Below, piece by piece: positions 4,471 to 47,667 of a DNA stretch of 64,000 nucleotides. The translations under genes were made by a program, and so were the position numbers. The notes below the pieces were generated by a model. The model ran no database searches and had not been told where the DNA came from. It worked only from the letters and a program-made list of their open reading frames with translations. The stretch is taken from positions 1 to 64,000 of the forward strand of contig JAWADY010000002.1 of the NCBI GenBank assembly GCA_038891615.1, in the 5' to 3' direction. The stretch's first letter is position 1; each line of letters starts with the position of its first letter. The DNA comes from Candidatus Woesearchaeota archaeon. GTDB taxonomy: Archaea; Nanobdellota; Nanobdellia; Woesearchaeales; ARS49.

Positions 4471-4474
4471 GGTA

Positions 4475-5221
4475 ATGAAAGGTATTAGAAGTTATCTTGT
4501 AAAGCTTTTGGAAAGAAAGGAGATTGCTGAAAAAACATATATCCTGACTTTTGAAAAGCCAGCGGGTTTTAGTTATCTTGCTGGCCAGTTTGTAATAATC
4601 TCTCTTATTGGAGAGCAAAAAGTTGATGAAAAAGGTGCTAGCAGAGCATTTTCACTCGCATCCGCACCTTATGAAGAAAAGCTGATGATTGCTGTGCGCG
4701 GCGGAGAGTCGGCATTCAAACAAGCATTACTAACTGCAAGTATTGGAGCTCAATTTGGTCTAGAGGGACCATTTGGGAGTCTTATTCTTGACAAGAGTAA
4801 ACGCCCTGTTGTCTTGATTGCAGGAGGAATCGGGATTGCTCCATTTAGATCAATAATCCTACAGGCTGTGCATGAGGGTTTGGAGCGGGAGATAACGCTG
4901 ATTTATTCAGAGAAACGTCCAGAAGATGCTGTTTTTCTAGAAGAGCTTTCTAAAATCAAAGTTCCGAAATTTAAACTCGTGGTTACAATGACAAGGGCAG
5001 GACAATCATCAAAAAAATGGCAAGGTCGTGTTGGAAGGATAAATGAGAAATTACTAAAAGAGTGCATTCCGGCTATCGAAGAAGCTCTTTACTATGTCGT
5101 TGGGCTGCCAGAAATGGTTCGAAGCGTGAAAGCCCTTCTTTTGGCTCTTGGAGTGAAGGCTGAAAACATAAAAGAGGAAATTTTTTCAGGATACCAAAAA
5201 AAGAGGGAGTCAAGCCTCTAA
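4475..5221 (+). CDS. FAD/NAD(P)-dependent oxidoreductase, ferredoxin-NADP reductase family
   Basis: AGQF, RAFSLAS, GPFG, LIAGGIGIAPF and YVVGLPEMV motifs. Confidence 0.85.
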   Translation: MKGIRSYLVKLLERKEIAEKTYILTFEKPAGFSYLAGQFVIISLIGEQKVDEKGASRAFSLASAPYEEKLMIAVRGGESAFKQALLTASIGAQFGLEGPFGSLILDKSKRPVVLIAGGIGIAPFRSIILQAVHEGLEREITLIYSEKRPEDAVFLEELSKIKVPKFKLVVTMTRAGQSSKKWQGRVGRINEKLLKECIPAIEEALYYVVGLPEMVRSVKALLLALGVKAENIKEEIFSGYQKKRESSL

Positions 5222-24949: not shown

Positions 24950-26153
24950 ATCCTAAGTTATTTGATAGAATCTGAATTATTTTCTTTCGAATCTTGTCTG
25001 AAAAAGAAAGCTGTATTTTTCGAGTTCTGCCATATCTGCCCTTTGAAACAACCTTTGCATTTATGAGTCCAAGCATATCAAATTCAGCAATGATATCAGA
25101 AACTCTTCTTTGAGTTAACTGCCTTAAACCAACACGTTCGCAGACAAGCTTGTAAGCTTCATAGATATCTCCAGTATATATATCATCCTCGCGTTGTGAT
25201 GTTGAAAGGAAAATGGCATAAAGGACTGCCTGATACTGTTGAGGTTGTGTGGTTACTGTTTCAAGTATCCTATCATTTTCGATTTTGGCCTCAGCCTTGT
25301 CGATATGTTCTATTTTTATTTTAGGCGAACCTTCGCGTTCCGCGAGCTCTCCTGCCACACGAAGCAGCTCAAGCGCCCTTCGAGCATCACCATGTTCTCT
25401 TGCGGCATATGCCGCGCATTTTTCAATTGCACCTTCACCAATTGCATCCTTTGCTAATGCTTCTGCAGCCCTCTGTTTTAAAATCTCTTGCAGTTGAATG
25501 GCGTTGTAGGGTGGGAAGATCATCTCTTCTTCAGAAAGGGAACTTTGTACTCTAGGATCTAAATTTTCTGTAAAAACAAGATTGTTTGATATTCCAATAA
25601 TTGAAACCTTAACATTTTTTAATTCAGAGTTTATTCTGGTTAAATTATAAAGAAGCTGGTCACCTGTGTTCTCAGCCAACTCATCAATTTCATCAAGTAT
25701 TATGATAACATTTTGTTTTTTAGAATCGATTATTTTGCAAAAGGTATTATAGATTTCGCTTGTTGGAAGTCCTGTTTGTGGAACGTCACAACCTAATTCT
25801 CTACAAAGATGAGCAAGGAGACGATATTCTGTGTCTGAAATTTTTTTCAATTTACAATTTACATAAAGTACTTTTAGTAGAATGTTATGATGCGCTGCGA
25901 CGTTTTCTAGTTGTCTTGTTGTGTACCTCACAGTCACAGTCTTTCCTGTGCCAGTTTTGCCGTAAACAAATATATTTGAAGGTTTCTCCATTCTTAACAC
26001 AGGTGCAAGAATGTTTGCAAGTTGTTGCACTTGCTCATCGCGATAGAGTATTTTTTCTGGAACATAGTCTAGTTGAAGTGCTTTTTTGTTAACAAAAAGA
26101 GATTTTTTTGAAAGATACTGTTCAAAGAAATCAACCAACCTCCCCTCTTTCAT
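24918..26153 (-). CDS. cdc6: Cdc6/Orc1 replication initiator
   Basis: GKTGTGKT, LDEID, DPRVQSSL, HGDARRAL, SKGRYGRT. Confidence 0.96.
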   Translation of the reverse strand: MKEGRLVDFFEQYLSKKSLFVNKKALQLDYVPEKILYRDEQVQQLANILAPVLRMEKPSNIFVYGKTGTGKTVTVRYTTRQLENVAAHHNILLKVLYVNCKLKKISDTEYRLLAHLCRELGCDVPQTGLPTSEIYNTFCKIIDSKKQNVIIILDEIDELAENTGDQLLYNLTRINSELKNVKVSIIGISNNLVFTENLDPRVQSSLSEEEMIFPPYNAIQLQEILKQRAAEALAKDAIGEGAIEKCAAYAAREHGDARRALELLRVAGELAEREGSPKIKIEHIDKAEAKIENDRILETVTTQPQQYQAVLYAIFLSTSQREDDIYTGDIYEAYKLVCERVGLRQLTQRRVSDIIAEFDMLGLINAKVVSKGRYGRTRKIQLSFSDKIRKKIIQILSNNLGFEGIKDVNDN

Positions 26154-26500
26154 GCCACTCCACTTGAAATGAAGGTTTATAAACATTTTGATTTAAGTGG
26201 AAACACCCCTTTATTTCGTGTGGAAGTTTGTGGGTTTTTGAATTGATGGCTTGAGAATAACAATAATTTTTCAATATTTGAACAAAATAAAACAATAACT
26301 TATTCTTATTTTCAATATTAAAAAATAGTTATTAAATAAAAAAATTTTATTTCAATATTAAAAAATAAGCTATAAAAGAAGAATGATTAATTGTTTAAAA
26401 CCAATGAATTGAAAGTTTAAAAATAATGAATTAAACAATTGTGACATTTATAACAACTAAACAAAAATCACTGAAGTTCCAAACGAAACAAAGGGGTTGC
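26154..26500. other. Replication origin (oriC): ORB elements flanking an AT-rich DUE
   Basis: ORB-like TCCACTTGAAATGAAGG (+, about 26159), TTCCACACGAAATAAAGGGGT (-, 26205-26225) and GTTCCAAACGAAACAAAGGGGT (+, 26476-26497). An AT-rich core with repeated TTTCAATATT lies between them, directly upstream of cdc6. Confidence 0.85.
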
Positions 26501-26573
26501 TCTGAAGTTTGTCTATAAAAACCTTTATATATTAGTTATGCCTTTTTAGTAGTAACTTAAAGCTATTATAAAA

Positions 26574-27356
26574 ATGATTGTAAATGCCGAATTTTTAAGC
26601 AGACTTAGAGATTTTGGTTTGAATGCCTATGAAGCAAGACTTTGGGTTGCGCTAATTTCTAAAGGAATCTCGACTGCTGGAGAGCTTTCTGACATTGCCA
26701 ATGTTCCTAGGAGCAGAAGTTATGATGTTCTTGAAAGCCTCGAAAAAAAGGGCTTTATCATAATGAAGCTTAGTAAGCCGATAAAGTATATTGCTGTTCC
26801 TCCATCAGAGGTCATTGAGCGTATGAAAGAAAAGATTGCTGAGGAAGCAAAAAGAAAGGCGGTTTTTCTTGAAAAAATAAAAAATGACGCAATTCTAGAA
26901 AAGCTGGAGCTTCTGCATAATAATGGAATGGCCAAAGTTAATAAACAGGATTTGATTGGCTCAATAAAAGGTAAACAAAACATTTATCATCACATAAGGT
27001 TGATAATAAAATCCGCAAAAAAATCAATTCTCATCACAGCATCTAAAACCACACTTTTAGAGATTATCCTTTCACTTAAAGGTGCATTGGAAAAAGCAAG
27101 AGCAAATGGCGCTCATACACTCATCATTGCACCCGACAAAAAGCTTTCAACAGACATCAGAAAACTACTACCATTTGTGAAAGTAAAAGCTTGCAAACAC
27201 AATAGTGATGTTGCTTTTATTGTCGTTGATAAAAAAGATGTTCTTTTGACTGCTTTTGGCGATAGCACACTACCAGCAAATAGCTATGCTATCTGGGCAA
27301 GCAACGAATCCTTTGCAAAAGGCATTGAAGATGTTGTTCTTGCAACTATGAAATAA
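26574..27356 (+). CDS. TrmB-family transcriptional regulator (paralog 1)
   Basis: FGLNAYEA, ELSDIANVPRSRSYDVLESLEKKG, PIKY.AVPP; PLD-like C-domain. Confidence 0.9.
   Translation: MIVNAEFLSRLRDFGLNAYEARLWVALISKGISTAGELSDIANVPRSRSYDVLESLEKKGFIIMKLSKPIKYIAVPPSEVIERMKEKIAEEAKRKAVFLEKIKNDAILEKLELLHNNGMAKVNKQDLIGSIKGKQNIYHHIRLIIKSAKKSILITASKTTLLEIILSLKGALEKARANGAHTLIIAPDKKLSTDIRKLLPFVKVKACKHNSDVAFIVVDKKDVLLTAFGDSTLPANSYAIWASNESFAKGIEDVVLATMK
26679..26815 (+). repeat. 137-bp near-identical repeat, copy 1 (copy 2 at 51698-51834)
   Basis: Manual alignment shows 2 mismatches in 137 nt; flanking sequence is divergent. Confidence 0.9.
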
Positions 27357-27412
27357 AAAGACCAAAAGATTTTTAAACACAGCTAATTGGTTTTAAGAAA
27401 AAAGATGAGCAA

Positions 27413-27604
27413 ATGGTAGAGGATGTACTTTTAAGGTTAACGCTTGCTGTAATTATTGGTACACTTGCTGCAATAATATATTCCCTTAGAGTTCTTGTCA
27501 TGATGGAAAGGCGTATCGCTAGAATCGAACAGCACATAGATGCTCTTGTGCACAAAGCATTGAAGGAAGAAAGTTCAATTAAGCGCGTGCTAAAAAAACT
27601 TTGA
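27413..27604 (+). CDS. Small membrane protein with coiled-coil tail
   Basis: TM segment IIGTLAAIIYSLR followed by ERRIARIE. Confidence 0.65.
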   Translation: MVEDVLLRLTLAVIIGTLAAIIYSLRVLVMMERRIARIEQHIDALVHKALKEESSIKRVLKKL

Positions 27605-27614
27605 CGCTCAAACT

Positions 27615-28115
27615 TTAAAATTTTTCCTTTTTTAACCTTTCAATCTCTTTTTTCAACTCTTCAATCTTTTTTCTGTTGTCTTCTTGTTCAAGAAGCTCTC
27701 CACATTCAGGGCATTTGTAGCTAAAGCCACTTGCTTGGTCAAAATCTAGTCGCACACATTTGTTTTTGCACATAAAAAATATTTCTGATTCTTCACGCTT
27801 CAACCGCTCGATGTAACTTTCTAACTTTCGTTTTCTCAATTCTTCTGAAATTGCCTTAATCCTTTTTGTATTGAAAGTCCAGAAATATATGTACCAACCT
27901 TTTTTTCGATCTTTTTTCCGTGTAAAGTTTACTAGGTTTGCGTTGTATAACTTGTAAAGTGCGTTCCTAACAGGATTTACTTCTTTCTTCATCCGAGTCG
28001 CTATTTGATACTCTGACAAGTTTTTACCTTTTAGAAGCACTCTAGCAACAGGTAAGGCTTCCTCGCCTGCAACTTCACTCACAACCGACTCGATAAGCTT
28101 TTCTGAAAGCTTCAT
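27615..28115 (-). CDS. tfe: Transcription factor E alpha (TFE)
   Basis: Winged helix VRNALYKL...GWYIYFW, Zn ribbon C..C / CPECG..L...DN. Confidence 0.88.
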   Translation of the reverse strand: MKLSEKLIESVVSEVAGEEALPVARVLLKGKNLSEYQIATRMKKEVNPVRNALYKLYNANLVNFTRKKDRKKGWYIYFWTFNTKRIKAISEELRKRKLESYIERLKREESEIFFMCKNKCVRLDFDQASGFSYKCPECGELLEQEDNRKKIEELKKEIERLKKEKF

Positions 28116-32837: not shown

Positions 32838-33854
32838 TTATGGTAGGAATGTTTGCCCAAGCTCCTCAAGCACTTGTTTATTTTGCTCAAACCACTTTCT
32901 TGCCTTTGAGAAAAGTTTTGTAAGAGCGTCCGCAACACCTTTTTTTAGATCAGCTGGATGAAGCTTTTTTTCAACAAAAGCCTGTTCAAGTTCAGCATAA
33001 CTTTCAAACTCAGCCCTTCCACCAAACCTCTCTTGCCTTTCGATTGTTAGCCTTCCAACGATAGGAAAAATGATGTGCCTGCATATCTGGAGGACTGGAT
33101 TGTTTGCAATCTCTCCTGCCGGACAATATGCTGCGCTCAATTTCGCAGCAATCTGCTCTTCGCTATCATAGATTTTTATGTGCGAGGCTGGAATTGATGC
33201 TGACATCTTTGTTCCAGGCCCCTTTAAGGAAAGTACTAGGGGAGTCATTATTTCAACCCTTTTCTTGTAACCAAGCTTTGGAAGCCACTCACGAGCATAA
33301 GCAAAGATGTGTCTTTGGTCAAGCCCTCCTAATTGCATGTCAACTCCCAGATATTCCTCATCAAGGGCTTGCATTATTGGATATATCAGCTCAGAAACCT
33401 TTGGGCTTTTCATCCTCGTAACCTCTGAAGCAGCTCTTTTTGCACGCTCGACGGTGGTTAGTGTTGAGAGCTTAAGCACATCAAGGGAGTATGCCTTTTC
33501 AAGCTGAAAGCTTGAGCCTATGACAAAATTTGGAGTCTCTTGCCAAGGGAGTGCAAGTTCTATGCATTTTTTGTAGTATGCCGTCCTTTTCTCAGTTTCC
33601 TCCCAGGGTGTCTTTAGGTCATCCAGCGCCGCATGAATGTCAGCAAGTAGGATTTTTGTTTTTATTCCAGCTGACATAAAATCAAAAAGTTTCGAAAGAG
33701 GCACAAGATAGCCAATGTGAAAAGGACCTGTTGGCGCTGTTCCATAATACGCAAAAAGCCTTTTCTTTTCTCTTAGAAGGCTTACAAGCTCCTGCTCTGT
33801 CAATATTTCCGCAACATTCCGCTTGATTAGCTCAAGCCTTTTTTCAACATCCAT
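32838..33854 (-). CDS. tyrS: Tyrosyl-tRNA synthetase
   Basis: GTAPTGPFHIGY, LADIHA, YPIMQALD, GGLDQR, KMSAS, LHPADLK. Confidence 0.95.
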   Translation of the reverse strand: MDVEKRLELIKRNVAEILTEQELVSLLREKKRLFAYYGTAPTGPFHIGYLVPLSKLFDFMSAGIKTKILLADIHAALDDLKTPWEETEKRTAYYKKCIELALPWQETPNFVIGSSFQLEKAYSLDVLKLSTLTTVERAKRAASEVTRMKSPKVSELIYPIMQALDEEYLGVDMQLGGLDQRHIFAYAREWLPKLGYKKRVEIMTPLVLSLKGPGTKMSASIPASHIKIYDSEEQIAAKLSAAYCPAGEIANNPVLQICRHIIFPIVGRLTIERQERFGGRAEFESYAELEQAFVEKKLHPADLKKGVADALTKLFSKARKWFEQNKQVLEELGQTFLP

Positions 33855-33901
33855 TCCCTTAAGCAGCTCTGTGCTTTATTTAAAACTTTTCAGCAATTTT
33901 A

Positions 33902-34033
33902 GGCTGTTAACTTATTGTAGATAATTAGTTTTCTACTTAAAAGAAGACCTCATTAAAGTCTTAATGGCAATAGTGTTTGTAATAAAAAGGAAGATTTAAT
34001 GTTTAAGGCAGCAACATTAAGTTAACAGAACCC
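33902..34033. mobile_element. MITE-like internally deleted IS remnant (left island boundary)
   Basis: CTGTTAACTTA at 33904 is inverted relative to TAAGTTAACAG at 34018-34028; the same end sequences recur at 41048-41091. Confidence 0.6.
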
Positions 34034-34056
34034 TAAAAGGTGACTCCGCAGCAATT

Positions 34057-34542
34057 TCACTTAACGCTGGACGCATTTTCAAACTTCCCGTGGCATCTCT
34101 TATATTTCTTACCGCTCCCGCAGGGGCACGGTTGATTTCTCGCAATCCACCAATGGAATTGGGTTATCATCACCAAAAGGGTTGCTTTTCTTATCTTCTG
34201 GGACTGCATCCATATCTACGGTACCTACGACTCTAAATTTAAGTGATGGTTTTTTTCACGAATCAAAGACACCAAACCACCAAATGCATCTTGAGCACTA
34301 GATACTAATTCAACAAATTCATCCATATCCAAAACAACTATGGGGAAGTGGGGGCAAAAATAGCCGCCATCATTTCCAGTTACAAATGGCTTGGCATCTT
34401 TTTTCGTTTTTACAAACAATAAATACGATTTATACTCCTTTTGCAACAATGAGTTACATTTGGGACATCTCTTACTATCTTTTATATCAGATAACCAATA
34501 CATTTCACGAGGTATTGACAATTTATATCTTTCAGTTCTCAT
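34057..34542 (-). pseudogene. Frameshifted SEC-C motif protein (gene-cassette ORF)
   Basis: ORF 34225-34542 (CPKC...GGYFCP) continues in other frames as [24 protein letters not shown] and [18 protein letters not shown]; AAGGGGA SD right after the attC-like site. Confidence 0.7.
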
Positions 34543-34566
34543 TCATATCCCCTTGTTGCGTCTTGC

Positions 34567-34653
34567 GTATAACGTATGCGATTAAGAGAAGTTTTTGCGA
34601 AGCAAAAATTTTGGGAAAATTTGCAGGATTTTCCCTCCTAATCACTGTTAGCG
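34567..34653 (-). repeat. attC-like integron cassette recombination site
   Basis: On the minus strand: CGCTAAC...GATTAGGAG...CTCTTAATC...GTTATAC. It is an imperfect palindrome with two internal hairpins and is followed directly by the next ORF. Confidence 0.7.
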
Positions 34654-34679
34654 TCCTGAATGAAGTGAAAGCCCGTACA

Positions 34680-35155
34680 TCCACCCCATATAGAATTGGA
34701 AAGTCAAAACCTCTTGTGTTAAAGAGTATTATTTCTTTTAATTTTTCTATCTCATCATTAGAATATCCAAATTCTCCACCAAAAATAAGACCTTTTATTT
34801 TTTTAAATATGCCTAATAGTCTTAAATCGGCTAAAAAACCATCTATATTTGATAAAGATCTTCTTTAAAAAAGATTCCCCTTCAGGAGTTTCTAAAAAAA
34901 GAATTTTTCCTGAAAAATCAGGCCAATATTCAGTTCCTTTCGTATGCATAATTGAAGTAATACATCCGCCAATAATTTTTCCCATAGCATTCCCTTCTCT
35001 TAACCACTCATAACCTTTATTTTTTTATATTCTCTTTTTAATTGTAAATCCTCTTTTTTAACCAGTTTGCTTTTTTGCAATCAGTCCATTTTTCTGATGG
35101 TAAAACCTTGCCGATAGGTAAATTAGAACAAATACAATTAATAAATTTTTCATAC
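34680..35155 (-). pseudogene. Fragmented MccF-like S66 LD-carboxypeptidase (C-terminal half)
   Basis: Across frameshifts: EWLREGNAMGKIIGGC...PDFSGKILFLETPEG...LGIFKKIKGLIFG...FPILYGVDV, truncated before the catalytic GHT. Confidence 0.75.
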
Positions 35156-35180
35156 CAGCAGAAAATTTTCATTTATAAAT

Positions 35181-35936
35181 TCAAGAATAATTTCTACATA
35201 AAACTGCCCATTTTTGATAAGGTTCTTTTAATCCAAAATTTCTAAAAAAGATAATTTTCATATTAACTCTTTTAGCTAAGTTTTTTAGTAATTCTTTGGA
35301 AAAAGTTAAATACAGTGCTTCGCTACCTAATCTCATTTTATTATTTTCATCATAAAATGTAATTTTAAAATATCTTTTTCTATTAATTTTATATGTAGTA
35401 ACGTTAAAAGACCATTTATTTTGTAAATATCTTTTTTGAGATTGGCCGTCTTTGTAAGTTTTTGAATAATCTCGTTCATCAATCCAGCTAAAAATAATGA
35501 TCCCTTTTTCTTTCAGATTTTTTTTAATTTTATTCAAAAATCGTTGCAAAATTTTAATATTTGGAAACGTTTGGATTAAAAAAGTGGAAATGTAGATTAT
35601 ATTAAATTTCTTTTTAAGATTTAACTTTTTAATATCTTTTGAGATAAATTTTGCATTTTTAATTTTTTTATTTCTTGCAATCTTTATTAGTTTTTTTGAT
35701 ATATCAACACCAAATAATGCCTTGAAATCTTTGAGATATAAAAATAGATTTCCTGTACCACATCCTATATCTAATAAAGAAGTTTTATACGGACTGATCT
35801 TACTTTTGTTCAAAAGTTTTTTAATAAATTTTGCTTCTCCTTCATAGTCATTCAAAAAGAAATAAGTAATGTCATAATAATTTTTATCTCCAAAGAATCT
35901 AAATTTTGTTTCTTCAACATTTTTTAGTTTTTTCAT
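35181..35936 (-). CDS. Class I SAM-dependent methyltransferase
   Basis: YYD...DYEGEAKF, LLDIGCGTG, GVDIS, LKEKGIIIF. Confidence 0.85.
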   Translation of the reverse strand: MKKLKNVEETKFRFFGDKNYYDITYFFLNDYEGEAKFIKKLLNKSKISPYKTSLLDIGCGTGNLFLYLKDFKALFGVDISKKLIKIARNKKIKNAKFISKDIKKLNLKKKFNIIYISTFLIQTFPNIKILQRFLNKIKKNLKEKGIIIFSWIDERDYSKTYKDGQSQKRYLQNKWSFNVTTYKINRKRYFKITFYDENNKMRLGSEALYLTFSKELLKNLAKRVNMKIIFFRNFGLKEPYQKWAVLCRNYS

Positions 35937-36471
35937 ATTTCTCTTTAAGTAAACTTAGAATAATCTCATCATAAAATTTTCCTCTTAAATAATGATGTTT
36001 AGGATTTATTCCATCTACATTAAACTTAAATTTACTTAAAAGTTTAAGCGATTTTTTATTTTCAGCTATAACTTTTGTAAATATCTTTTTTAGATTTAAT
36101 TCGTTAAATCCAAAGAGTAGTACTCTTTCTACCGCTTCACTCATTATCCCTCTATTCCAATATTTTCTATTCAAAAGATAGGCCAAACCTGCTCTTTGGT
36201 TTATTCTATCTATCTCATATAAACTTATAGTTCCAATCAATTTCTTATTAAAAATTATGCCAAAATCATATGCCTTTCCTTTTTTAAAATTACGAATAGA
36301 TTCTTTTATGTAATCGTTAGCGTTATCAAGGGTATAGGGCCAAGGAATAGATGGAAGCCATTTTATCACTTCTTTAGTAATATTTTTCTTTATGCTTATA
36401 GAGTCTTCTTTTCTTAAGTTCCTAAGAAACAATCTTTTTGTTTTTAATAATATAAGATTATTCCGTTGCAT
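35914..36471 (-). CDS. RimJ/RimL-type GNAT N-acetyltransferase
   Basis: TKRLFLR, PWPYT, LIGTI, YWNRGIMSEA, N..S..LL.K..F. Confidence 0.88.
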   Translation of the reverse strand: MQRNNLILLKTKRLFLRNLRKEDSISIKKNITKEVIKWLPSIPWPYTLDNANDYIKESIRNFKKGKAYDFGIIFNKKLIGTISLYEIDRINQRAGLAYLLNRKYWNRGIMSEAVERVLLFGFNELNLKKIFTKVIAENKKSLKLLSKFKFNVDGINPKHHYLRGKFYDEIILSLLKEKYEKTKKC

Positions 36472-37465
36472 TTTCCAATATTTCTATAATCTTTTTTTCT
36501 GAATTTATTCTTGTTTTGACCCCTATCGGGAGAGTAATCATTGGCGATGTGTGTCCTATATCTACGTCCATTATAATCGGGATTTTATATTTTTCTCCGA
36601 AATCTTTTAATATATCAAATAATTCTCCTTCAGGAGAATCAATTTTTAGATTGAATGGTCTTCCGTATATTAAACCTTTTATTTTATTGAAGACTCCTAC
36701 TTGTTCTAAATGTACAAGATTTCTTTCAGTAGAAGAAGTTGATTCTCCTTCATCTTCTAAAAATAGTATTGCATTAGAAAAATCAGGAAAAAATTCTGTG
36801 CCAGTCATTGCACAAATAGTATTTAAATTTCCTCCAATTAAGACGCCCTCAGATTCTCCTTCATAAACACATTTAGGAGGGGAGGCTTTCTTCATTTTTC
36901 TTTTTCTATTATCTTCTTTTTCCCACCACAAAATTTCTTCAGTGTATTCGTCTGGGAATTCTAAAATCCCTAAAGGTCTTACTTCAAAAAGGGCTTTTTT
37001 AAACCATTTAATAGTAAATGGATCTGGGCCACCATACTCTCCAAAAGTTGGTAAAATAGTAGGTCCATTAAATGTTATTAAATTTGATTTTTGATATAAA
37101 GCTAGATTTAGCATAGTTATATCGCTAAAACCGCAAAAGATTTTTGGATTTTGTTTTATTAAATCGAAGTCCAAAAAAGGAAGCACAGAATTAGAATTCC
37201 ACCCTCCAGTTGAACATATTATTGCTTTTATCTCATCATCTTTAAAAAAATTCATAATATCTTCTGCTCTTTGTTTTGATGTCCCTCCTGTATGCCTAAA
37301 GGAAGATACTGCATATTTTCCAAGTTTTACTTTTAATCCTAACTTTTCTAAAGCAACAAGACCTCTCTGTAATCTTCTAGGAAAAGGTTTTATTGTAGAA
37401 GATGGACTAACTATCCCAATTGTGTCCCCTTCTTTTAAATGTTTTGGCTTGATTATTTTTACCAT
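36458..37465 (-). CDS. S66 peptidase, MccF (microcin C self-immunity)-like LD-carboxypeptidase
   Basis: PKHLKEGDTIGIVSPS; intact Ser-Glu-His triad motifs GFSDIT, LFLED, GHT; Trp-rich loop EILWWE. Confidence 0.9.
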   Translation of the reverse strand: MVKIIKPKHLKEGDTIGIVSPSSTIKPFPRRLQRGLVALEKLGLKVKLGKYAVSSFRHTGGTSKQRAEDIMNFFKDDEIKAIICSTGGWNSNSVLPFLDFDLIKQNPKIFCGFSDITMLNLALYQKSNLITFNGPTILPTFGEYGGPDPFTIKWFKKALFEVRPLGILEFPDEYTEEILWWEKEDNRKRKMKKASPPKCVYEGESEGVLIGGNLNTICAMTGTEFFPDFSNAILFLEDEGESTSSTERNLVHLEQVGVFNKIKGLIYGRPFNLKIDSPEGELFDILKDFGEKYKIPIIMDVDIGHTSPMITLPIGVKTRINSEKKIIEILENATE

Positions 37466-38286
37466 CTTTCTTTTGTCAAAAAAAGTTCTATCTCATCTTG
37501 TTTTTTTCTTTTTTGAAAGAGCAATATAGAAAAATTACAATATTGAAGATTTTTGTTAAATAATCTAAAAACTTCAAGAAGTTTTTTTCTAAGAATTTCT
37601 TTTTTATGAAAGTTACGAAGATGATCTTTATTTATAAGATAATTTACATAATCTTTAAGTCGTTTTTTTCTATCTAGATATATAAAATCTCTGTCATAAT
37701 ATAATTCTAAAGAAATATTTAGCTTTAGTGAGACACTTCTAAATAGATTTATCCAAAAATCTTTGTCCCAGATTTCAATCTTTGTTCCAATTACTTTTGA
37801 TATCTTCTCAACCAAAGAAATTGGAGGTTTTTTGGAATAATAGATAGGTATCGCCACTAAAGTTCCTCTTGTTTTCAAAACTCTTAAATATTCTAAAATA
37901 GCTTTCTCTTTATTTTCTAAAAAAGAAGTAACATTGCTACACCATACAATATCAAAACTTTCGTCTTTAAAAGGAAGATTTAAGGCATCGGCCACTTTAA
38001 ACCTAGTTCTTTTTTTAACACCTTGTTCTGATGCATATCTTTTTGCTTCCCTTATTGACTCTTCGTTAATATCAATTCCTACAGCTTTACATCCTGTTAA
38101 CAAAGCAAGATTTACAGACGTAAAACCAGTGTTACATCCAATTTCTAATATTTTTTTAGATTTATCTATATTGGCATATGTTGCAACATAATTAATAGTA
38201 CGTATTCCTCCTGAAGGCCTATTTCTTTCTCTAGTAAGAGCCACTAATTCTGAGTAGGTCATATTATCTATTTCTTTAATATTCAT
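37459..38286 (-). CDS. Class I SAM-dependent methyltransferase
   Basis: NRPSGG, ILEIGCNTG, GIDI, ADALNLPFKDESFD, EYLRVLK. Confidence 0.87.
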   Translation of the reverse strand: MNIKEIDNMTYSELVALTRERNRPSGGIRTINYVATYANIDKSKKILEIGCNTGFTSVNLALLTGCKAVGIDINEESIREAKRYASEQGVKKRTRFKVADALNLPFKDESFDIVWCSNVTSFLENKEKAILEYLRVLKTRGTLVAIPIYYSKKPPISLVEKISKVIGTKIEIWDKDFWINLFRSVSLKLNISLELYYDRDFIYLDRKKRLKDYVNYLINKDHLRNFHKKEILRKKLLEVFRLFNKNLQYCNFSILLFQKRKKQDEIELFLTKERW

Positions 38287-39388
38287 TTTTAAGAAGATCA
38301 TCCAAATTTTTATAATAAACATTTTCTCCTTTTTTTATTGTTATTCTTCCGCTCTCAACTTCTTTATCTCCTATAAGATATTTTTCGTTTACACTCCAAA
38401 AATCAGCGAAGTCTAATTTTTCTTTTAATGTTAAATTTTTTCTATCATCCAAATAAATTTTATTATAGTTTTTTCTTAAAATAGTATACACTCTATCTGC
38501 CAATTCTACTTGTTTTTTTTCATTTATCTTAATAGGTATCACTACTTTTTCGAAAGGTTTTATTTTTTCTGGAAGATTAATTCTGCTTCCTAAAAGATTC
38601 GATTTTAAAGATGCTAGTAAAATACGTTGTGTTCCAATTCCATAAGTCCCTACAATGACCTGTTTAAATTCATTAGTTGAAGAGATGTATCTTACATTAA
38701 ATTTTTTAGAATCTAAATAACGATAGGCCATTGCTAAACTTAATCCTACAATCTTTTTTCCATTATATTCAAAAACTTCCCCATTATCATAAGGAAATAT
38801 ATATTCTATCCCATTATTTTTTTCTTTTTTCACAAAAGAAACATTCATCTTTTGGAACAAGCAGTCTAATGTTTCTTCAAAAAGAGCCATGGATTCAATA
38901 AATTCTTTTTCATTTTTGTCTAAAGTTATCATTACTATTCCTCCAAATTGTTTAGTTTTGAGGGTTCCTTCTGGACGTTTTATATTTCTGAAACATTCAC
39001 TTAAAGCAAAATATCTTAATGGTAGCTGATAATGAGATAATATGTCTTTTTCAAATAGTTCTAGTAAATATTCTTCGGATGTTGCAAGAAGAACTTTATT
39101 GTTGAATTCAAATATTTGATCTGAAAAATCTTTATACTTCCCGCTTTTTAATAATAAATCTTTTTTATGGATTAAGGGTATCTGTACTTGATAAAACTCT
39201 TTTTTATTTAAATAATCAATAATTAAGTTATTGATGTTATCTAATAAAATCTTTCCAAAGGGAGAAAAGAAAAGAAATCCTGCATCTATGTAAGAAGCGA
39301 GTCCTAAATTTAAAACTAAATCTTTATCATTAACATGTTCTTGAAATTTTCTAAATTTTTCTTGAAAAATAATTTTTGATAGTCTCAT
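38276..39388 (-). CDS. Prolyl-tRNA synthetase-like paralog (class IIa catalytic plus anticodon-binding domain)
   Basis: SPFG, QIP..LLKSGK, LLATSEE, QLPLR..FRNIKRP, TYGIGTQR, PFEKVVIPI, LDDR..GDKEVE. Confidence 0.8.
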   Translation of the reverse strand: MRLSKIIFQEKFRKFQEHVNDKDLVLNLGLASYIDAGFLFFSPFGKILLDNINNLIIDYLNKKEFYQVQIPLIHKKDLLLKSGKYKDFSDQIFEFNNKVLLATSEEYLLELFEKDILSHYQLPLRYFALSECFRNIKRPEGTLKTKQFGGIVMITLDKNEKEFIESMALFEETLDCLFQKMNVSFVKKEKNNGIEYIFPYDNGEVFEYNGKKIVGLSLAMAYRYLDSKKFNVRYISSTNEFKQVIVGTYGIGTQRILLASLKSNLLGSRINLPEKIKPFEKVVIPIKINEKKQVELADRVYTILRKNYNKIYLDDRKNLTLKEKLDFADFWSVNEKYLIGDKEVESGRITIKKGENVYYKNLDDLLKNEY

Positions 39389-39390
39389 TT

Positions 39391-40527
39391 TCAAGGCACC
39401 ATTATTTTATCTACCCTTGGAAAATGACAAACACTCCAAATAAAAGGCATTTCTAATAAGCCTTGTAAAAACCTCTCCCATCCAAGTCCAAACCCTGATG
39501 TTTCTTTGTAGTTTTCTAATATTCTTGATTGTAAATAGGGTTCATAATCTTTTTTTGGTAAATTAAAAATTTTTGCTTTTTCTTTTAATTCTTTTATATT
39601 TCTTACTCTATGACCGCTACCAACTATTTCTATATAGCCAGGCCATATGAAATCTGCATTATCTGCTACTAATGGTTGTTTACCATCTACTACTGCATGA
39701 TAAAAAGGAACTTCGAATAGAGGAAACTCTTTAATTATGACCATTGTCTCTAAGATCTCTGTTATTTTGACTTCTTCCCATGCTCCAAAATTTTTTAGAG
39801 TAAATTCTTTATATTTTCTGTTTTTTGTCTCGTTATACAATAAATCCAAACACTCTTTAAAAGTTATTTTAGGAGTTTTTAAAATATTTTTAGCAAATTT
39901 TTTAAGTTCTTCTAACTTACTTTCAGTTAAAAAATAAGAAAGATCTTCTTTATGGCTTTTAAATAAATCAAAAATAATCTTTTTTATTAATTTCAAGACC
40001 ATCTTTTCATTTTCTTCTTGACTAATTTTTCCTTCAAATTCAATATGATGAAATTCTGATAAATGTGTAACATCTGCTCTTTCTTTCCTAAAAGAATTAT
40101 ATATAGAATACGCCTTATTGATATTTTTTTGAAGCAAAGCTAATTCTAAATAAATTTGAGAAGATTCTGATAAAAAAACTTTTTTTGGCAGGTTAAACCA
40201 TTTTAAAGTTATTGGACAAGTATCTTTTATGTAATTAAGTTTATACTTTCCATAAACTGCACATGGTGAAGAAATCATTCTCGTAGTGAGAGGTAAAGTT
40301 ATAAATAATGCTCCTTCTTTATCAAAAAATTCATTAGCAGATTTATTTATAGAATGGTTTATTTTAGATAAATGAAACCACACATCATTATTCTTCAAAG
40401 ACTCAACTCGGTTTTTAATTTCATTCACAGAAACGTCAATTTCAAGAACATCCTTAATAGGCCTAAATATTTTATTTCCCCTATAAGAAATAGTTCCATC
40501 TTTATTGGCATGATAAGGGCCAAGCAT
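39391..40527 (-). CDS. Asn/Asp-tRNA synthetase-like catalytic-domain-only paralog (class IIb)
   Basis: FLSESSQIYLE, SFRKE...HLSEF.HIE.E, PFYH, EIVGSG.R, SGFGLGWERF, FPR; no N-terminal OB anticodon domain. Confidence 0.82.
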   Translation of the reverse strand: MLGPYHANKDGTISYRGNKIFRPIKDVLEIDVSVNEIKNRVESLKNNDVWFHLSKINHSINKSANEFFDKEGALFITLPLTTRMISSPCAVYGKYKLNYIKDTCPITLKWFNLPKKVFLSESSQIYLELALLQKNINKAYSIYNSFRKERADVTHLSEFHHIEFEGKISQEENEKMVLKLIKKIIFDLFKSHKEDLSYFLTESKLEELKKFAKNILKTPKITFKECLDLLYNETKNRKYKEFTLKNFGAWEEVKITEILETMVIIKEFPLFEVPFYHAVVDGKQPLVADNADFIWPGYIEIVGSGHRVRNIKELKEKAKIFNLPKKDYEPYLQSRILENYKETSGFGLGWERFLQGLLEMPFIWSVCHFPRVDKIMVP

Positions 40528-40551
40528 AACATAAATACAAAAAATGGATAT

Positions 40552-40559
40552 TTATAAAA
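40552..40559 (-). promoter_or_regulatory. Archaeal-type TATA box for the aaRS-paralog operon
   Basis: TTTATAAA about 25 nt upstream of ATG 40527. Confidence 0.45.
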
Positions 40560-40649
40560 ATTGCTCTTTAAAATTCGTAAAATTTTTTAGATTAAGCAAC
40601 CCCTCTCAATCTTGTGGCAGATGGTCGGGGGACAGCCGAATTCTGAATT

Positions 40650-40690
40650 ACGCCTAACAACTATTAAGCGAGATAAATATTCGCTTTATA
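40650..40690 (-). other. attI-like recombination site
   Basis: Minus-strand GTTAGGC (GTTRRRY) at 40652-40658, preceded by inverted repeat AAGCGA...TCGCTT, between the operon and a divergent recombinase. Confidence 0.55.
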
Positions 40691-40696
40691 GTATAG

Positions 40697-41038
40697 ATGA
40701 GGTATAAAAAGCGAGATTTTATGAAGTTAGTTTCCATAATAAACTGGATGGTAGATGATAGTAAAATCCATTCTCCAGAAGAAAAATATAAACTGATTGG
40801 TAAGCTAGTCGAGGAACTAAAACTTAGAAGATATTCCTATCAAACAGGCAAGTCATATATTTCCACAGTGAAAGACTTTCTGTCTTCAGGTAAAACGCTG
40901 AGAGAGTTTCTGCTATTAGAATCTGGTACGGATATTCGATACATTCAGCAGTTATGAGGGTATAAAGATTTGAAAACGACACAAATCTACACTCACGTTG
41001 CAAATGAGAATATAAAGAAACTTGCAAATCTGCTTTAG
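40697..41038 (+). pseudogene. Tyrosine recombinase/integrase remnant (internal deletion, nonsense mutation)
   Basis: The N-domain LKLRRYSYQTGKSY is fused directly to the C-terminal [28 protein letters not shown]. The catalytic R and HxxR segments are missing. Confidence 0.85.
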
Positions 41039-41169
41039 CCTTTAGAGTTCTTTTAAGCAGAAGATTAATGCCTACAATAAGTTAACAGAACACCAAAAAG
41101 AAAGATTTAAATATGAGCATCATCCTTTTTGATTTAAAAGTTGTAACATTTTTGTGAAAAGGTGAACAG

Positions 41170-41433
41170 ATGGCTGATGATGAAAAGAAGTTCTCAAGAC
41201 AAATTCTTGGCAAAACTGTTGTTTCCAAAGCAGGAAAGCGCTTTGGGACTGTAGGGGATATTATTTTTGAAACAAAGTCGGGTGAGCTAATACATCTTGT
41301 GCTTACCGATCCTACGATATATGCTGAAAAGCTTGAGCTTGAGCGCTCAAAAGAAGGTGAAATGCTCATCCCCTTTAGCGCAGTCATTGCTGTTGGCGAC
41401 TTTGTAGTCGTGTCCGAAGAAGACCTTGTTTAG
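41170..41433 (+). CDS. PRC-barrel domain protein
   Basis: LGKTVVSKAGKRFGTVGDIIFETKSG...IPFSAVIAVGDFVVV. Confidence 0.88.
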   Translation: MADDEKKFSRQILGKTVVSKAGKRFGTVGDIIFETKSGELIHLVLTDPTIYAEKLELERSKEGEMLIPFSAVIAVGDFVVVSEEDLV

Positions 41434-44835: not shown

Positions 44836-46023
44836 GTCAGATCTAATCAGGATAGATAAGGATGTATATGCAGTAGTACGTCCAAACGAGATTTTATATG
44901 TGCGTAAAGAAGAATTAGACAATTTTAAGGATTATTCTATCCAGCCTATAAAGGAAAAAGGAAAATCCTGTCTTTCAGCAACATTTGTTCCAACACTTGA
45001 TTGTAATTTGAGGTGCATATATTGTTATGCTCGTGGTGGGGAACAAAAAGATATGATGCCCTCTTCAATGGCTCGTAGATTTTTAGAAAAAATGTATGAT
45101 CCAGCAAAACACGATGGAATTCACTTAAGATTTGCAGGCGGGGGAGAACCTTTTCTCAATTTTGCGTGTATAAAAGAAGCAGTAGAAACTGCTAAGAAAT
45201 TAACAGTAAAGTTTCTTTACATTGTATAACTAATGGGACTTTTAATAAAGAACAATTGTTTTGGATATTAAAAGAAAGGCCTCATATGAGGGTTTCTTAT
45301 GATGGTTTATCTCAGGAAATACAAAGGCCTTATAGAGGAGGAGGGGATTCATCAAACATAGTAAGAAGAAATATCCGAGAGCTTACAGATAAAGGAATAG
45401 AAACTGTTGTTCAGTCTACAATTACATCTTTAAATGTTTCTAAGATGAGAGAACTTGTATCAGAATTTTATGAGCTAGGCGTTCGAACAATAAAAATGGA
45501 ACCAGTTTATATAACCGAGAATTCAAGGGGAAATGCGAAATTGAATATTTCCCCTTCTGAATTCGTTTCAAATTTTCTAGACGCGGTTAAATATATCAGA
45601 GAAAATAATCTGGAAATGCAGATAGATACTGCTTTTTTTTCACGACCAACGCTAGGAAATTATTGTAGCTTATCTACTGGAAATATAATCTTAACTCCAA
45701 GTGGAGGTATTAGTGGATGTGTTGAAATAACAAATAATTGTGATTATCATTCAGGAGATGTCTTTTATGGAAAATTTGAAGAAGGTTTAGGGGAAATCAG
45801 GTTTGACGAGTCTAAGAAAAAATCTTTTGGGAAATTTCATTTTAGTAATTACACTAATTGCCCATCCTGTAATTTAAAACTTATTTGCAAAGGAGGATGC
45901 CCTCTTAGAAGAATCTGGAATCAGGAAGATCATTTTTGTAAAATTACTAGAAGGTTAGTTCCGCAACTTCTAAAATTATTTTACAAGGATCCTTCTTATG
46001 TTAAAATATTTATTAAAAAATGA
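44771..46023 (+). pseudogene. Radical SAM/SPASM peptide-maturase-like gene split by one frameshift (about 45197)
   Basis: CNLRCIYC and GGGEP in ORF 44771-45229. The shifted frame gives SKVSLHCITNGT and runs into ORF 45256-46023 (VSYDG, QRP, C..G...SGC, CPSCNLKLICKGGCP). The true start is uncertain. Confidence 0.8.
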
Positions 46024-46724
46024 GACTAGATATTGCTTTAAAAAATAAAAAATTTGCCGATAGCAGGGAGAAGGCAAAATATCTTATTAGAGAAGGATAT
46101 GTCAAAGTAGACGGATCCATCGTTACAAAACCTAGTAAAAACGTTAGTGAAACCTCAAAAATTGTTTTGATTAAAGATTTTGAATTTGTTGGAAGAGGTG
46201 GCTATAAACTTGATGCGCCTGTGAAACATTTCAAAATCAGTTTTAATGACAAAATTGTCGCTGATGTTGGTTGCAGTACAGGAGGTTTTACAGATTATGC
46301 TTTAAAGCATGGGGCTAGGAGAGTATATTCTATAGATATAGGCGATCCTCTCTATGAAACTTTAAGGAAAGACCCAAGGGTTGTTTACCTTCCAAATAAT
46401 GACGCAAGAAATATCAAACGCTTGGACGAAAAGGTGGATATATGCTTAATTGATGTAACTTTCTCACCATTAGAAGAAATTCTTTTGGTTGTTAGAAATT
46501 GGTTAAAAGATAAGGGAGAAGTTCTTGGACTAATAAAACCTCCTTTTGAACTAGAAGGAAAACCTAAAAAAATATATGATTATAAAAAATGTTTTGATAT
46601 TGCTAAGGCTGTTTCTAATTGGGCATCAAAAAATGGATACGAAGTAAAGGGCTTAATTGATTCAAAATTAAAAGGCAAATCTTCAAAACAACAGGAATTT
46701 TTCATTTATCTTCTTAAGCAATAA
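46020..46724 (+). CDS. tlyA: TlyA-family rRNA 2'-O-methyltransferase (S4 domain plus FtsJ-like)
   Basis: MRLD..SREKA, VGRGGYKL, DVGCSTGGFT, DVTF, LIKP.FE. Confidence 0.9.
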   Translation: MRLDIALKNKKFADSREKAKYLIREGYVKVDGSIVTKPSKNVSETSKIVLIKDFEFVGRGGYKLDAPVKHFKISFNDKIVADVGCSTGGFTDYALKHGARRVYSIDIGDPLYETLRKDPRVVYLPNNDARNIKRLDEKVDICLIDVTFSPLEEILLVVRNWLKDKGEVLGLIKPPFELEGKPKKIYDYKKCFDIAKAVSNWASKNGYEVKGLIDSKLKGKSSKQQEFFIYLLKQ

Positions 46725-46749
46725 CAAACCTGCATGTGCGTTAGAGGCA

Positions 46750-47667
46750 CTACCTTGGCAACTTCTTTATCTCAAACTCTCTGCTAAATGCATCGTTATA
46801 ACCATACTCTAGTTCAATGCCAAGAACAGCATTAAATGTTCCAAGCCTTTTGTCAATTCCTTCTGGTAGCGTGCAGAGCGCCTCTGCTTCATTTTTTGAA
46901 AAGACCAACTCGCGTTGGCAGTTCATACTTTTGTCAAGAAGAGTAACGCGTAAGCCAGCCTTGTTAAAATCCTCAGCCTTAAGTAGTCCTGCCGCGCAAG
47001 CATCTGCTGCCCTTCCTGGTCTGACAATTATCCCTTTTCCATTATTCCTGAACTTCAGTAGAACTTGTGGCAAGACTTTTCCTTTGTCTGGATGGCTCAA
47101 AATTTTAGGTTCAACGCTTGTTAGCACAACCGGTGCGCCTTGGCCTGTCAGTTTAAGGCTTTGCATTCTACAAACTTTTTTATTCGAAGAGATCTCAGCA
47201 AAAAGGTCAGTATCTATACAAATCTCGGGAGCAGCAATTGTGGCATACTCATAGCAAATGTCAACAGTCGCTTTGGCTGGCAACCGCTCAAGCCCTGGCC
47301 CTAGTCCCATTGCTTTTGCTGGAATGGTCTCAATAATCTTTTCGCCAGTCGGGTTGTCGAGAGACTTGCCTTGAAGCTCAATAAAGCCGGACTCCTTTGA
47401 AAGCTGCACAGCATCCCTATTATAGTTTATGACATAAACTCCTCCAGAAACATCATTTGCTCCTTTGTTCCAAATCTCAAAGGCGAGGTCAAAGCTTGAG
47501 CCTTCATAAACAATCTGTGGTGGAGAGTTTTCAATCCACCTCAACACAAGCCCTTCTGTACCAGTATGTATTTGAGGCTGGACGCCTGCTGGTCGTGTTG
47601 TTACAAACTGGCAACCAGCAACCAGCAACGCTGCAAAAATGCCTATAAAAATAAGCCCTTTGCTCAT
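46750..47667 (-). CDS. Lipoprotein-like Ig-fold surface protein (paralog family A)
   Basis: VAGC signal; HTGTEGL, NKGA, CYEYAT.A..ICID, QGAPV, YGY. Confidence 0.75.
   Translation of the reverse strand: MSKGLIFIGIFAALLVAGCQFVTTRPAGVQPQIHTGTEGLVLRWIENSPPQIVYEGSSFDLAFEIWNKGANDVSGGVYVINYNRDAVQLSKESGFIELQGKSLDNPTGEKIIETIPAKAMGLGPGLERLPAKATVDICYEYATIAAPEICIDTDLFAEISSNKKVCRMQSLKLTGQGAPVVLTSVEPKILSHPDKGKVLPQVLLKFRNNGKGIIVRPGRAADACAAGLLKAEDFNKAGLRVTLLDKSMNCQRELVFSKNEAEALCTLPEGIDKRLGTFNAVLGIELEYGYNDAFSREFEIKKLPR

Follow-up and report, generated by a model that had tools for sequence, protein, structure and literature searches.

A probable decayed integron-type platform with one fixed six-gene cassette in a woesearchaeotal genome and its XerA-like recombinase relatives

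The defining component of an integron is an integrase with a special domain, which is held to be needed for recombining folded attC sites. In the sedentary chromosomal integrons of bacteria, such as the Vibrio superintegron, the integrase gene (intI) is followed by the attachment site attI and then by the cassettes; the 3' boxes are hybrid, and the sites of one genome resemble each other more closely. The 3' box tail of each site in an integron belongs to the next cassette and hence complements the 5' box of that cassette. The spacer of a bacterial attC site is unpaired and carries extrahelical bases, and bacterial cassettes are mostly single promoterless genes driven by the platform promoter Pc. 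Some integrons lie within transposons or between insertion sequences (ISs), as do the class 1 integrons in Tn402/Tn21 or between IS26 copies. Here we describe a locus in a 64,000-nt stretch of DNA from a Candidatus Woesearchaeota archaeon (contig JAWADY010000002.1, positions 1 to 64,000; hereafter the window). We consider it likely that this locus is a decayed integron-type platform with one fixed six-gene cassette, of a kind found in an order of small-genome (DPANN-like) archaea. The window is the beginning (C2:1-64000) of one of the five contigs of the host genome G000, which amounts to 661 kb with 41% GC and is estimated to be 98% complete.

Integrons have been described in Archaea, including Nanoarchaeota; in the account of Ghaly et al. 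(2022, PMC9668308), the archaeal integron integrases (IntIs) carry the IntI-specific domain and most archaeal arrays have no neighbouring integrase. The arrays analysed here resemble those of that account in being same-strand arrays of folded sites with AAC...GTT ends, in lying in DPANN-type (Nanoarchaeota) genomes, in having an attI with the canonical insertion point by a divergent tyrosine recombinase, and in mostly lacking a detectable IntI. They differ in that the recombinase is XerA-like and lacks the IntI-specific domain that the described enzymes have, and in that many of the cassettes hold several genes and a promoter of their own. With the Vibrio-type integrons they share the order of integrase, attI and cassettes, the hybrid 3' boxes and the greater likeness of sites within a genome. 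A literature search, which included a 2021 review of archaeal tyrosine recombinases but did not cover the array and IntI lists of Ghaly et al. (2022), found no XerA-like enzymes devoid of the IntI domain beside cassette arrays. A permafrost study of 2026 speaks of many 'integron-type' recombinases without detectable attC sites.

The proposed platform consists of three parts: a dead tyrosine recombinase gene, an attI-like region ending in GTTAGGC, and a single 6085-bp cassette with a folded attC-like site at its end. A previous sequence-only reading had noticed a recombinase remnant divergent to a gene array, a core sequence just upstream of the remnant, an attC-like palindrome about 6 kb away, and six intact genes with an archaeal TATA box in between; it had taken the integrase to be dead and the interval to be either a fixed, unusually large cassette or an operon inserted into or collapsed onto a cassette. 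The comparisons described below bear out these points. The remnant lies at 40697..41038 on the plus strand and is divergent from the six intact minus-strand genes (35181-40527). The core, GTTAGGCGT, is found at 40650-40658 (minus strand), 39 nt away from where the open frame of the remnant starts, and is the only match in the window; since 29 of 100 shuffles contained at least one match, the motif alone is not significant. The attI-side crossover box GTTAGGC occupies 40652..40658 (minus strand), and the cassette begins after its G, at 40657. The adjoining attI-like region (40659..40790) contains a hairpin (40661-40671/40681-40691). The stretch between GTTAGGC and the recombinase gene is kept in five platforms, in which the AAC/GTT triplet is invariant and the hairpin adjoins it. 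A GTTRRRY box by the integrase gene, with a cassette start at G|TT, is what is expected of an attI, and on these sequence features the region is an attI.

The boundary of the cassette was given by the comparison with L048, a locus of another genome in which the copy of the cassette stands in the middle of an array. Homology between the window and L048 starts exactly at G|TTAGGCGTAATT, and a leader of approximately 90 nt is common to both. Before the TT both sequences have a G, and farther out they are unrelated, L048 having a short site and the window the attI-like region. The start of homology at G|TT led us to delimit a minus-strand cassette of 6085 bp (34573-40657). Two other genomes have this operon with the same site at its end, in agreement with the interval being one cassette. 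The leader (40563..40657, minus strand) starts with TTAGGCGTAATT, contains a hairpin at 40600-40631, and is shared with L048, L065, and G146. In L076 (G146; ~4430-4520), the leader of ~95 nt (TTAGGCGTAATT ... hairpin ... GAGAGGGGTTGCTT) precedes unrelated genes, which indicates that it is not specific to this operon; the leader matches no Rfam family. The leader is followed by TTTTTATAAAT (40550..40562, minus strand), the predicted TATA-like box of the cassette's own promoter, which lies 23-35 nt before the first ATG and whose position is kept in L048 and L065. With this predicted box inside it, the cassette is not a promoterless one dependent on a Pc.

The attC-like site of the cassette spans 34558..34660 on the minus strand. 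Its 5' box, CGCTAAC, is located at 34647-34653 (minus strand) within the palindrome arm GTTAGCGT (ACGCTAAC on the minus strand; 34647-34654), and its 3' box, GTTATAC (GTATAAC on the plus strand), is located at 34567-34573. Between the boxes are an L-box stem, in which 34578-34591 pairs with 34636-34646, and two inner hairpins (34592-34608 and 34613-34635). Nucleotide comparison with loci carrying relatives of the first cargo gene brought related sites to light. The attC-like site following the operon in L048 is 80% identical over 98 nt (E 2.5e-17), a palindrome of about 100 nt is located just downstream of the last gene of the operon in L065 as well, and more distant further copies are present in both loci. 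The six aligned sites have invariant AAC...GTT ends (yTAAC...GTTRRRy for the family) and share the L-box stem, of the GCGATTAA/TTAATCGC type, and the two inner hairpins with compensatory changes in the stems. In the 22-pair structure of the six sites, 86% of the cells are paired versus 74% in shuffles, a value reached by none of 500; double (compensatory) changes occur in 11 of the 22 pairs, and sliding the partners lowers the pairing to 35-53%. The palindrome of the window is thus a member of a covarying family of sites. The sister sites of L048, L073, and L076 have ACGCCTAAC, which complements GTTAGGCGT without a mismatch. The 5' box of L048, GCCTAAC, complements GTTAGGC exactly, and an ancestral window box GCCTAAC would pair likewise.

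A covariance model, R1, was built from the six sites. RNAalifold recovered only the outer stems from the alignment (A7), and MAFFT mis-registers the inner hairpins, for which reason R1 was limited to the outer stems and one hairpin. R1 scored the site of the window at 95 bits (E 1e-15) and found no other in the host genome. With the filters off, no second site was found between 30000 and 45000; the next-best match there, the attI region, was not significant (13 bits, E 0.7), and the palindrome showed no similarity above shuffles to the attI side or to a related locus on contig C3 of the host (see below). In the other genomes, R1 found seven same-strand sites over 14 kb of L048 and two sites in L065. 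Two more adjoin an intact homolog of the remnant in G051, and a decayed homolog in G096 has one next to it. Matches with E<=0.01 were present in 55 of the 151 genomes of the order, often in same-strand clusters, and the sites are found next to unrelated genes of either orientation. R1 missed very short sites, made up of a 5' box, 11-23 nt, and a 3' box, which stand upstream of the operon cassette in L048 (~4415-4436) and L065 (~9870-9905), where full attC-like sites would be expected. Low-depth contigs of hot-spring metagenomes match both halves of 34580-34651 with 52 other letters in between, and related sites with a longer centre therefore exist in other members of the community.

The pairing of boxes between neighbouring sites was examined with all 40 R1 matches from a set of related arrays, the weak ones included, which gave 25 consecutive site pairs. 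At the four informative positions, the 5' box matched the 3' tail of the upstream neighbour with a mean of 3.28 of 4, versus 2.16 for a site's own tail, 1.88 for the reversed pairing, and 1.95 for random pairs. Eighteen pairs matched at 4/4, and none of 5000 permutations reached the observed sum. The misses include the two weakest R1 matches and one pair spanning a missed short site. Complementarity to the upstream box is the classic signature of integron cassettes, and by this measure the cassettes of the related arrays behave as discrete units.

Cassettes in the ten mapped loci range from 0.3 to ~7 kb. Multi-gene examples are found in L048 (4.4 kb, four genes), L073 (4.0 kb, three genes), and L077 (3.8 kb, four genes); in L075, a stretch of ~7 kb, which may contain an undetected site, adjoins the integrase. 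Some cassette genes in the related arrays point the opposite way. In this family it is not rare for a cassette to hold several genes and measure 2-7 kb; the 6.1-kb cassette of the window is at the upper end but not unique. The single fixed cassette proposed in the sequence-only reading is upheld, with this refinement as to its size. L075 (G077:C2:103000-118000) holds a whole platform, array and intact recombinase included, in an 11.5-kb island of 31-40% GC within a contig of ~60% GC, and six same-strand open reading frames (ORFs) in a 6.4-kb block adjoin the recombinase there.

The remnant aligns with the first ~44 and the last ~41 residues of proteins of 252-280 residues, with homology to the intact enzymes starting from ~40790. 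An in-frame loss of ~167 codons has removed the region of the catalytic Arg/Lys/His-x-x-Arg residues, and a TGA stop and a GH to GY replacement are also present. It is the sole PF00589 match in the host genome. Given that the only tyrosine recombinase match is dead and that the genome is ~98% complete, the host appears to be without any XerA, though its relatives have one. Homologs of the remnant were found in 96 of the 151 genomes of the order (this tally and that of integron integrases include the unpublished genomes G123 and G143). They best match archaeal XerA, yet score under the equivalog cut-off (NF040815, 198-208 versus 220 bits), and the array-adjacent enzymes are therefore not XerA equivalogs by score. 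They align in one stretch with the XerA structures (PDB 4A8E and 5HXY), with which they also share the length class, and in two stretches with IntI4 (2A3V). The interval between the KGxKxR and HxLRH motifs is 57-61 residues in all 16 clade members compared, versus ~105 in the Vibrio-type IntI4, that is, ~45 residues fewer. The integron-integrase model TIGR02249 gave no match over its cut-off in any of the 151 genomes; the matches listed cover model positions ~1-192 or ~235-315, and none among them spans the part in between. The IntI-specific insertion, which the sequence-only reading had suggested looking for, is thus absent: judging from this spacing, the intact homologs lack the domain around patch III, and the remnant has lost the region.

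These enzymes are linked to the arrays by position and by descent. In at least 21 genomes, according to coordinates listed and compared by hand, a recombinase gene and R1 sites lie on one contig within ~10 kb, and each of these 21 has them on opposite strands, the recombinase gene turning its 5' end towards the sites. The ten mapped array loci have intact genes for recombinases of 252-288 residues. A tree was made of 36 proteins: 12 array-adjacent enzymes, 20 without a nearby site, hand-picked from the full-length homologs, and 4 of unknown context; decayed and partial copies were excluded. All 12 array-adjacent enzymes fell in one clade (Shimodaira-Hasegawa-like approximate likelihood-ratio test (SH-aLRT) support 90), together with two enzymes of unknown context and two 'non-adjacent' enzymes encoded within 150 nt of a contig end. 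The sister clade consists of sixteen non-adjacent enzymes (SH-aLRT 98), which presumably are the housekeeping XerA. Nine genomes place one enzyme in each clade, and the four best matches of the remnant fall in the array clade. The array enzymes thus differ from the XerA/dif system of the same genomes in belonging to a sister clade and in adjoining attI and cassette arrays instead of a single dif site. The sequence-only reading had held that it would fail if the attC model did not score the site and the intact homologs were ordinary XerA-like enzymes without arrays. The part on the homologs proved half true, since the homologs are XerA-like and without the IntI insertion but stand beside arrays and form a clade of their own. 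We infer that the arrays are served by this XerA-derived clade without the IntI-specific insertion.

The arrays might instead be ordinary archaeal clusters of attC sites lacking integron integrases (CALINs), served in trans by a canonical IntI absent from the fragmented genomes, with the XerA-like neighbour a passenger or engaged in another role, for instance as a resolver or stabiliser of the array. Among the matches listed, 34 of the 55 genomes with R1 sites have no recombinase on the same contig, and in the account of Ghaly et al. (2022, PMC9668308) archaeal IntIs with the IntI-specific domain exist and most arrays have no neighbouring integrase. We regard this explanation as unlikely. None of the 151 genomes, some of which (for example G096) are complete or nearly so in a single contig, has a protein over the integron-integrase cut-off; all 21 co-located cases among the matches listed show the divergent geometry; and the array-adjacent enzymes form their own clade, with a conserved attI-like region right at their 5' ends.

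The platform of the window lies between decayed ends of one probable IS family. On the left is an internally deleted copy resembling a miniature inverted-repeat transposable element (33897..34038, 142 bp), with the inverted ends TTTTAGG..CTGTTAACTTA / TAAGTTAACAGAAC CCTAAAA and a 29-nt scrap of transposase coding sequence. On the right, a lone end of the same family (41040..41098, ~59 bp) abuts the stop codon of the integrase gene, and a 92% identical copy is found beside a second integrase scrap on contig C3 of the host. An exact 14-nt direct repeat at 34018 and 41078, which extends to 22/25 nt, is present in inverted orientation at 33904 and recurs on C3; in G096 its 'left-arm + core' directly follows a frameshifted transposase scrap. 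The transposase scraps of G096 gave weak family matches (rve_3, E 3.5e-4; DDE_Tnp_IS240, E 0.08). The inverted copy, the recurrence on C3, and the adjacency to the transposase in G096 led us to conclude that the repeats are very probably IS ends. We had considered a prophage-like integrative element that entered site-specifically, with the repeats at 34018 and 41078 as attL and attR, on the strength of the exact direct repeat and the recombinase remnant at one end. Once the repeats had been recognised as such ends, this idea was dropped, and we rate it as highly improbable.

The two outermost IS ends are mutually inverted, as in a composite transposon, and delimit a block of 7.1 kb. The locus resembles the IS-bracketed integrons in that inverted ends of a single IS family enclose the platform and that the genome has a second copy, and differs from them in that both IS copies are reduced to ends and the transposase is known from frameshifted scraps in another genome only. 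An intact IS copy was not found among the loci compared (L081 holds one end only), nor was a target-site duplication identified at the block. At C3:18858-20310 (L026, 2359-3811), a second IS-bracketed block contains an FkbM-family methyltransferase gene and a 22-nt recombinase scrap, and there the IS end meets the 3' flank of the recombinase gene at the same junction as in the window. A MAFFT alignment of the integrase region of the window with C3 was informative for the last 60 nt and a 25-nt scrap only.

These brackets raise the possibility that the locus is simply a genomic island resembling a composite transposon, and that the palindrome is the terminator of the operon or a small-RNA element. 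The inverted ends around the 7.1-kb block and the second such block on C3 are in keeping with this, as are the location of the site 3' of the last gene, its hairpins followed by T-runs, and its unexceptional fold energy. A terminator, however, can account neither for upstream-box complementarity at 4/4 and a homology break at G|TT, nor for sites beside unrelated genes in either orientation and the fixed geometry of the recombinase. Delivery by ISs fits the integron explanation and forms part of it. We therefore consider the island explanation, taken by itself, to be improbable. Because the platform lies between inverted decayed-IS ends and interrupts a conserved neighbourhood, the integron-type platform probably arrived as an IS-bracketed block.

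Genes for an archaeal-type tyrosyl-tRNA synthetase (tyrS) and replication factor C (RFC) flank the locus. The synthetase is at most 49% identical to those of the nearest genomes compared, which belong to other genera. In relatives, the gap between tyrS and a PRC-barrel gene is 0.4-1.1 kb in 8 of the 11 loci compared, with the RFC gene beyond in 7 of these 8; in the host it is 7.3 kb. Judged from gene order, the platform interrupts a tyrS/PRC-barrel/RFC neighbourhood that is otherwise conserved. The interval is a sharp compositional island, with 18-33% GC at ~34.7-40.56 kb versus ~42% around it. In both L002 (from the unpublished genome G009) and L006, the gap of ~1 kb between tyrS and the PRC-barrel gene contains a gene for a Cas4-like nuclease (~270 residues), which is absent from the host locus (33855-41170 of the window compared with these two loci). 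Two more low-GC stretches, 26001-28000 and 45001-47000 (31-35% versus ~42%), are present in the window. No tRNA gene, considered as an integration target, occurs in the 64-kb window, and Rfam gave three chance-level matches only over 33700-41300 at E<=1. In two runs, possibly the source data themselves, a public contig of 24,951 nt covers both borders of the locus with no differences; the public runs holding the sequence are labelled hot-springs metagenomes and are possibly the origin of the assembly. Neither an excised cassette nor an empty attI was seen in the public contigs of four hot-spring metagenome runs. The sole joint found in all four, from 40794 to 41040, is the C3 copy.

The six genes of the cassette, in the order of their minus-strand reading, encode an AsnRS/AsnA-like class II catalytic core of 378 residues without an anticodon-binding domain (39391..40527), a ProRS-like class II aminoacyl-tRNA synthetase (aaRS) paralog of 372 residues with an anticodon-binding domain (38276..39394), a SAM (S-adenosylmethionine)-dependent methyltransferase of 287 residues (methyltransferase 1, 37459..38322), an S66 serine peptidase of the MccF subfamily (36458..37465), a GNAT acetyltransferase of the RimL/RimJ/MccE C-terminal-domain type (PF13302; 35914..36471), and a second SAM-dependent methyltransferase of 251 residues (35181..35936). 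The AsnRS-like protein belongs to a family of 378-residue proteins that are 60-87% identical across many metagenomes, and it keeps the whole class II catalytic core, which alone matches. Its scores of 132 bits against AsnRS cut-offs of 342-414 and 110 against 389 for AsnA place it outside both equivalog groups, and the ProRS-like protein is far under every equivalog cut-off. The host has canonical aaRSs of its own, with three canonical PF00152 enzymes elsewhere in the genome. The S66 protein matches MccF entries with E 2.5e-58 to 1e-53 over residues 7-332, versus 1e-29 to 1e-18 for LdcA-type (murein LD-carboxypeptidase) entries, and is assigned to the MccF subfamily by this full-length similarity. 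MccE is among the best structural-database matches of the GNAT protein.

Between the last gene and the attC-like site is a frameshifted C-terminal fragment of a second S66 (MccF-like) gene (34700..35040, minus strand), which shares 45% and 32% identity with the intact copy. Where it ends on the 3' side is uncertain, since its last ~60 nt overlap the conserved flank of the site. In L048, the site follows an intact MccF-like gene, and together with the fragment this suggests that two versions of the cassette rearranged with one another. Beyond the cassette is a decayed gene (34057..34542, minus strand) with two in-frame stops, probably the remains of a next cassette whose own attC is missing. 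Its ORFs of 105 and 50 residues make up one frame with a CxxC...C zinc-ribbon-like N-terminus and a SEC-C motif at the C-terminus, and it has no relative among the loci compared or in the host genome.

The operon occurs in the same order in L065, with 69% nucleotide identity over 5.4 kb, where it forms an island of 26-31% GC in a contig of ~39% GC. The same genes in the same order indicate that the cargo is an old operon and not an assembly of cassettes. In 17 loci from GTDB genomes (Woesearchaeota, Nanoarchaeota, bacteria of the candidate phyla radiation (CPR), and Bdellovibrionales), the pairing of AsnRS-like and MccF-like genes is found in 15, methyltransferase 1 in 9, and the ProRS-like gene in 5. 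A trio of AsnRS-like, methyltransferase, and MccF-like genes (L034-L046; 44-60% identity) occurs in DPANN archaea, CPR bacteria (Moraniibacteriota, Minisyncoccota, and Saccharibacteria), Bdellovibrionales, and a gammaproteobacterial metagenome-assembled genome. This distribution suggests that the trio is a module spread horizontally among small-genome or predatory organisms.

The composition of the cargo recalls the microcin C (mcc) system, in which the aspartamide-adenylate warhead receives its decoration from a class I SAM-dependent transferase and is detoxified by MccF and by the acetyltransferase domain of MccE (as described in PMC8323819). The cargo likewise includes an MccF-subfamily S66 protein, an MccE/RimL-type GNAT, and class I SAM-dependent transferases (compare MccD), as well as an enzyme predicted to form an Asp/Asn adenylate. 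It differs in having no MccA peptide gene, ThiF-like MccB, or exporter, and its adenylate-forming enzymes are aaRS paralogs. On the basis of the likeness to MccF, to MccE and to the methyltransferase, we tentatively propose that the operon makes, or protects against, an inhibitor of the aminoacyl-adenylate type; we favour this over other functions while regarding it as rather doubtful. PADLOC returned only methyltransferase-domain matches for the operon, with no known defence-system family matched.

In addition to the 34 genomes with sites but no recombinase on the same contig, several observations weigh against the integron-type reading of the locus. The sites differ from canonical attC in that almost the whole spacer is paired, leaving a bulge of 3-5 nt on just one side, and in that the centre is a three-way junction. 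Folded as a single strand, as the sequence-only reading had suggested for the bottom strand, the palindrome gives z -2.3 for the plus and -3.4 for the minus strand. Its fold energy ranks in the top 3.6-6.8% of GC-matched 101-nt windows from the same 64 kb, and energy alone would thus not pick it out, which makes folding a test of little discrimination. The 5' box of the window carries a 1-nt deletion, one C having been lost relative to the sister sites in L048, L073, and L076; this is the one base in which the palindrome had earlier been found not to complement the attI-side core. The host genome has a single R1 site and no live recombinase, so that the locus alone shows one cassette and not an array. 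R1 sites are present in only 2 of 41 other loci carrying the AsnRS-like gene, which implies that the operon is mostly not a cassette and has been captured as one only occasionally. Genomes of one order are not independent, and the 21/21 count and the tree thus overstate the statistical weight. The IntI-specific domain, which the homologs lack, is thought to be needed for the recombination of bacterial attC sites (Ghaly et al., 2022, PMC9668308, citing Messier and Roy), and no recombination was observed.

Taking the integron-type platform as the most probable explanation, we envisage the following history. The recombinase would have joined the attC-like site of a circular cassette to attI at G|TT. 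A cassette joined in this manner has TTAGGC, which is the tail of its 3' box, at its beginning and the 5' box, the stems, and a G at its end. The six-gene operon, with its predicted promoter, probably existed before and was captured whole as a cassette, and the integrase later lost its catalytic core, which left the cassette fixed in place.

For the order as a whole, we lean somewhat towards the view that DPANN-type archaea run a distinct integron, in which a XerA-derived integrase that never gained, or has lost, the IntI domain inserts cassettes at the G|TT of folded attC-like sites, the cassettes often being self-promoted operons of 2-7 kb and the platforms being moved from genome to genome by ISs. 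If this is true, it would account for the scoring of nearly all archaeal cassette arrays as integrase-less, and would provide a living model of the transition from Xer to IntI or of its convergent reinvention. If the XerA-like enzyme works, detection tools, by the definition they apply, overlook an entire class of integrons, the IntI domain is not a general structural requirement, and the descent of integron integrases from Xer recombinases can be tested directly. The locus also indicates that a complete six-gene, self-promoted operon can travel as a single cassette, and the operon may be regarded as a candidate cluster for the production of, or immunity to, an aminoacyl-adenylate antimetabolite, common to DPANN archaea and CPR bacteria.

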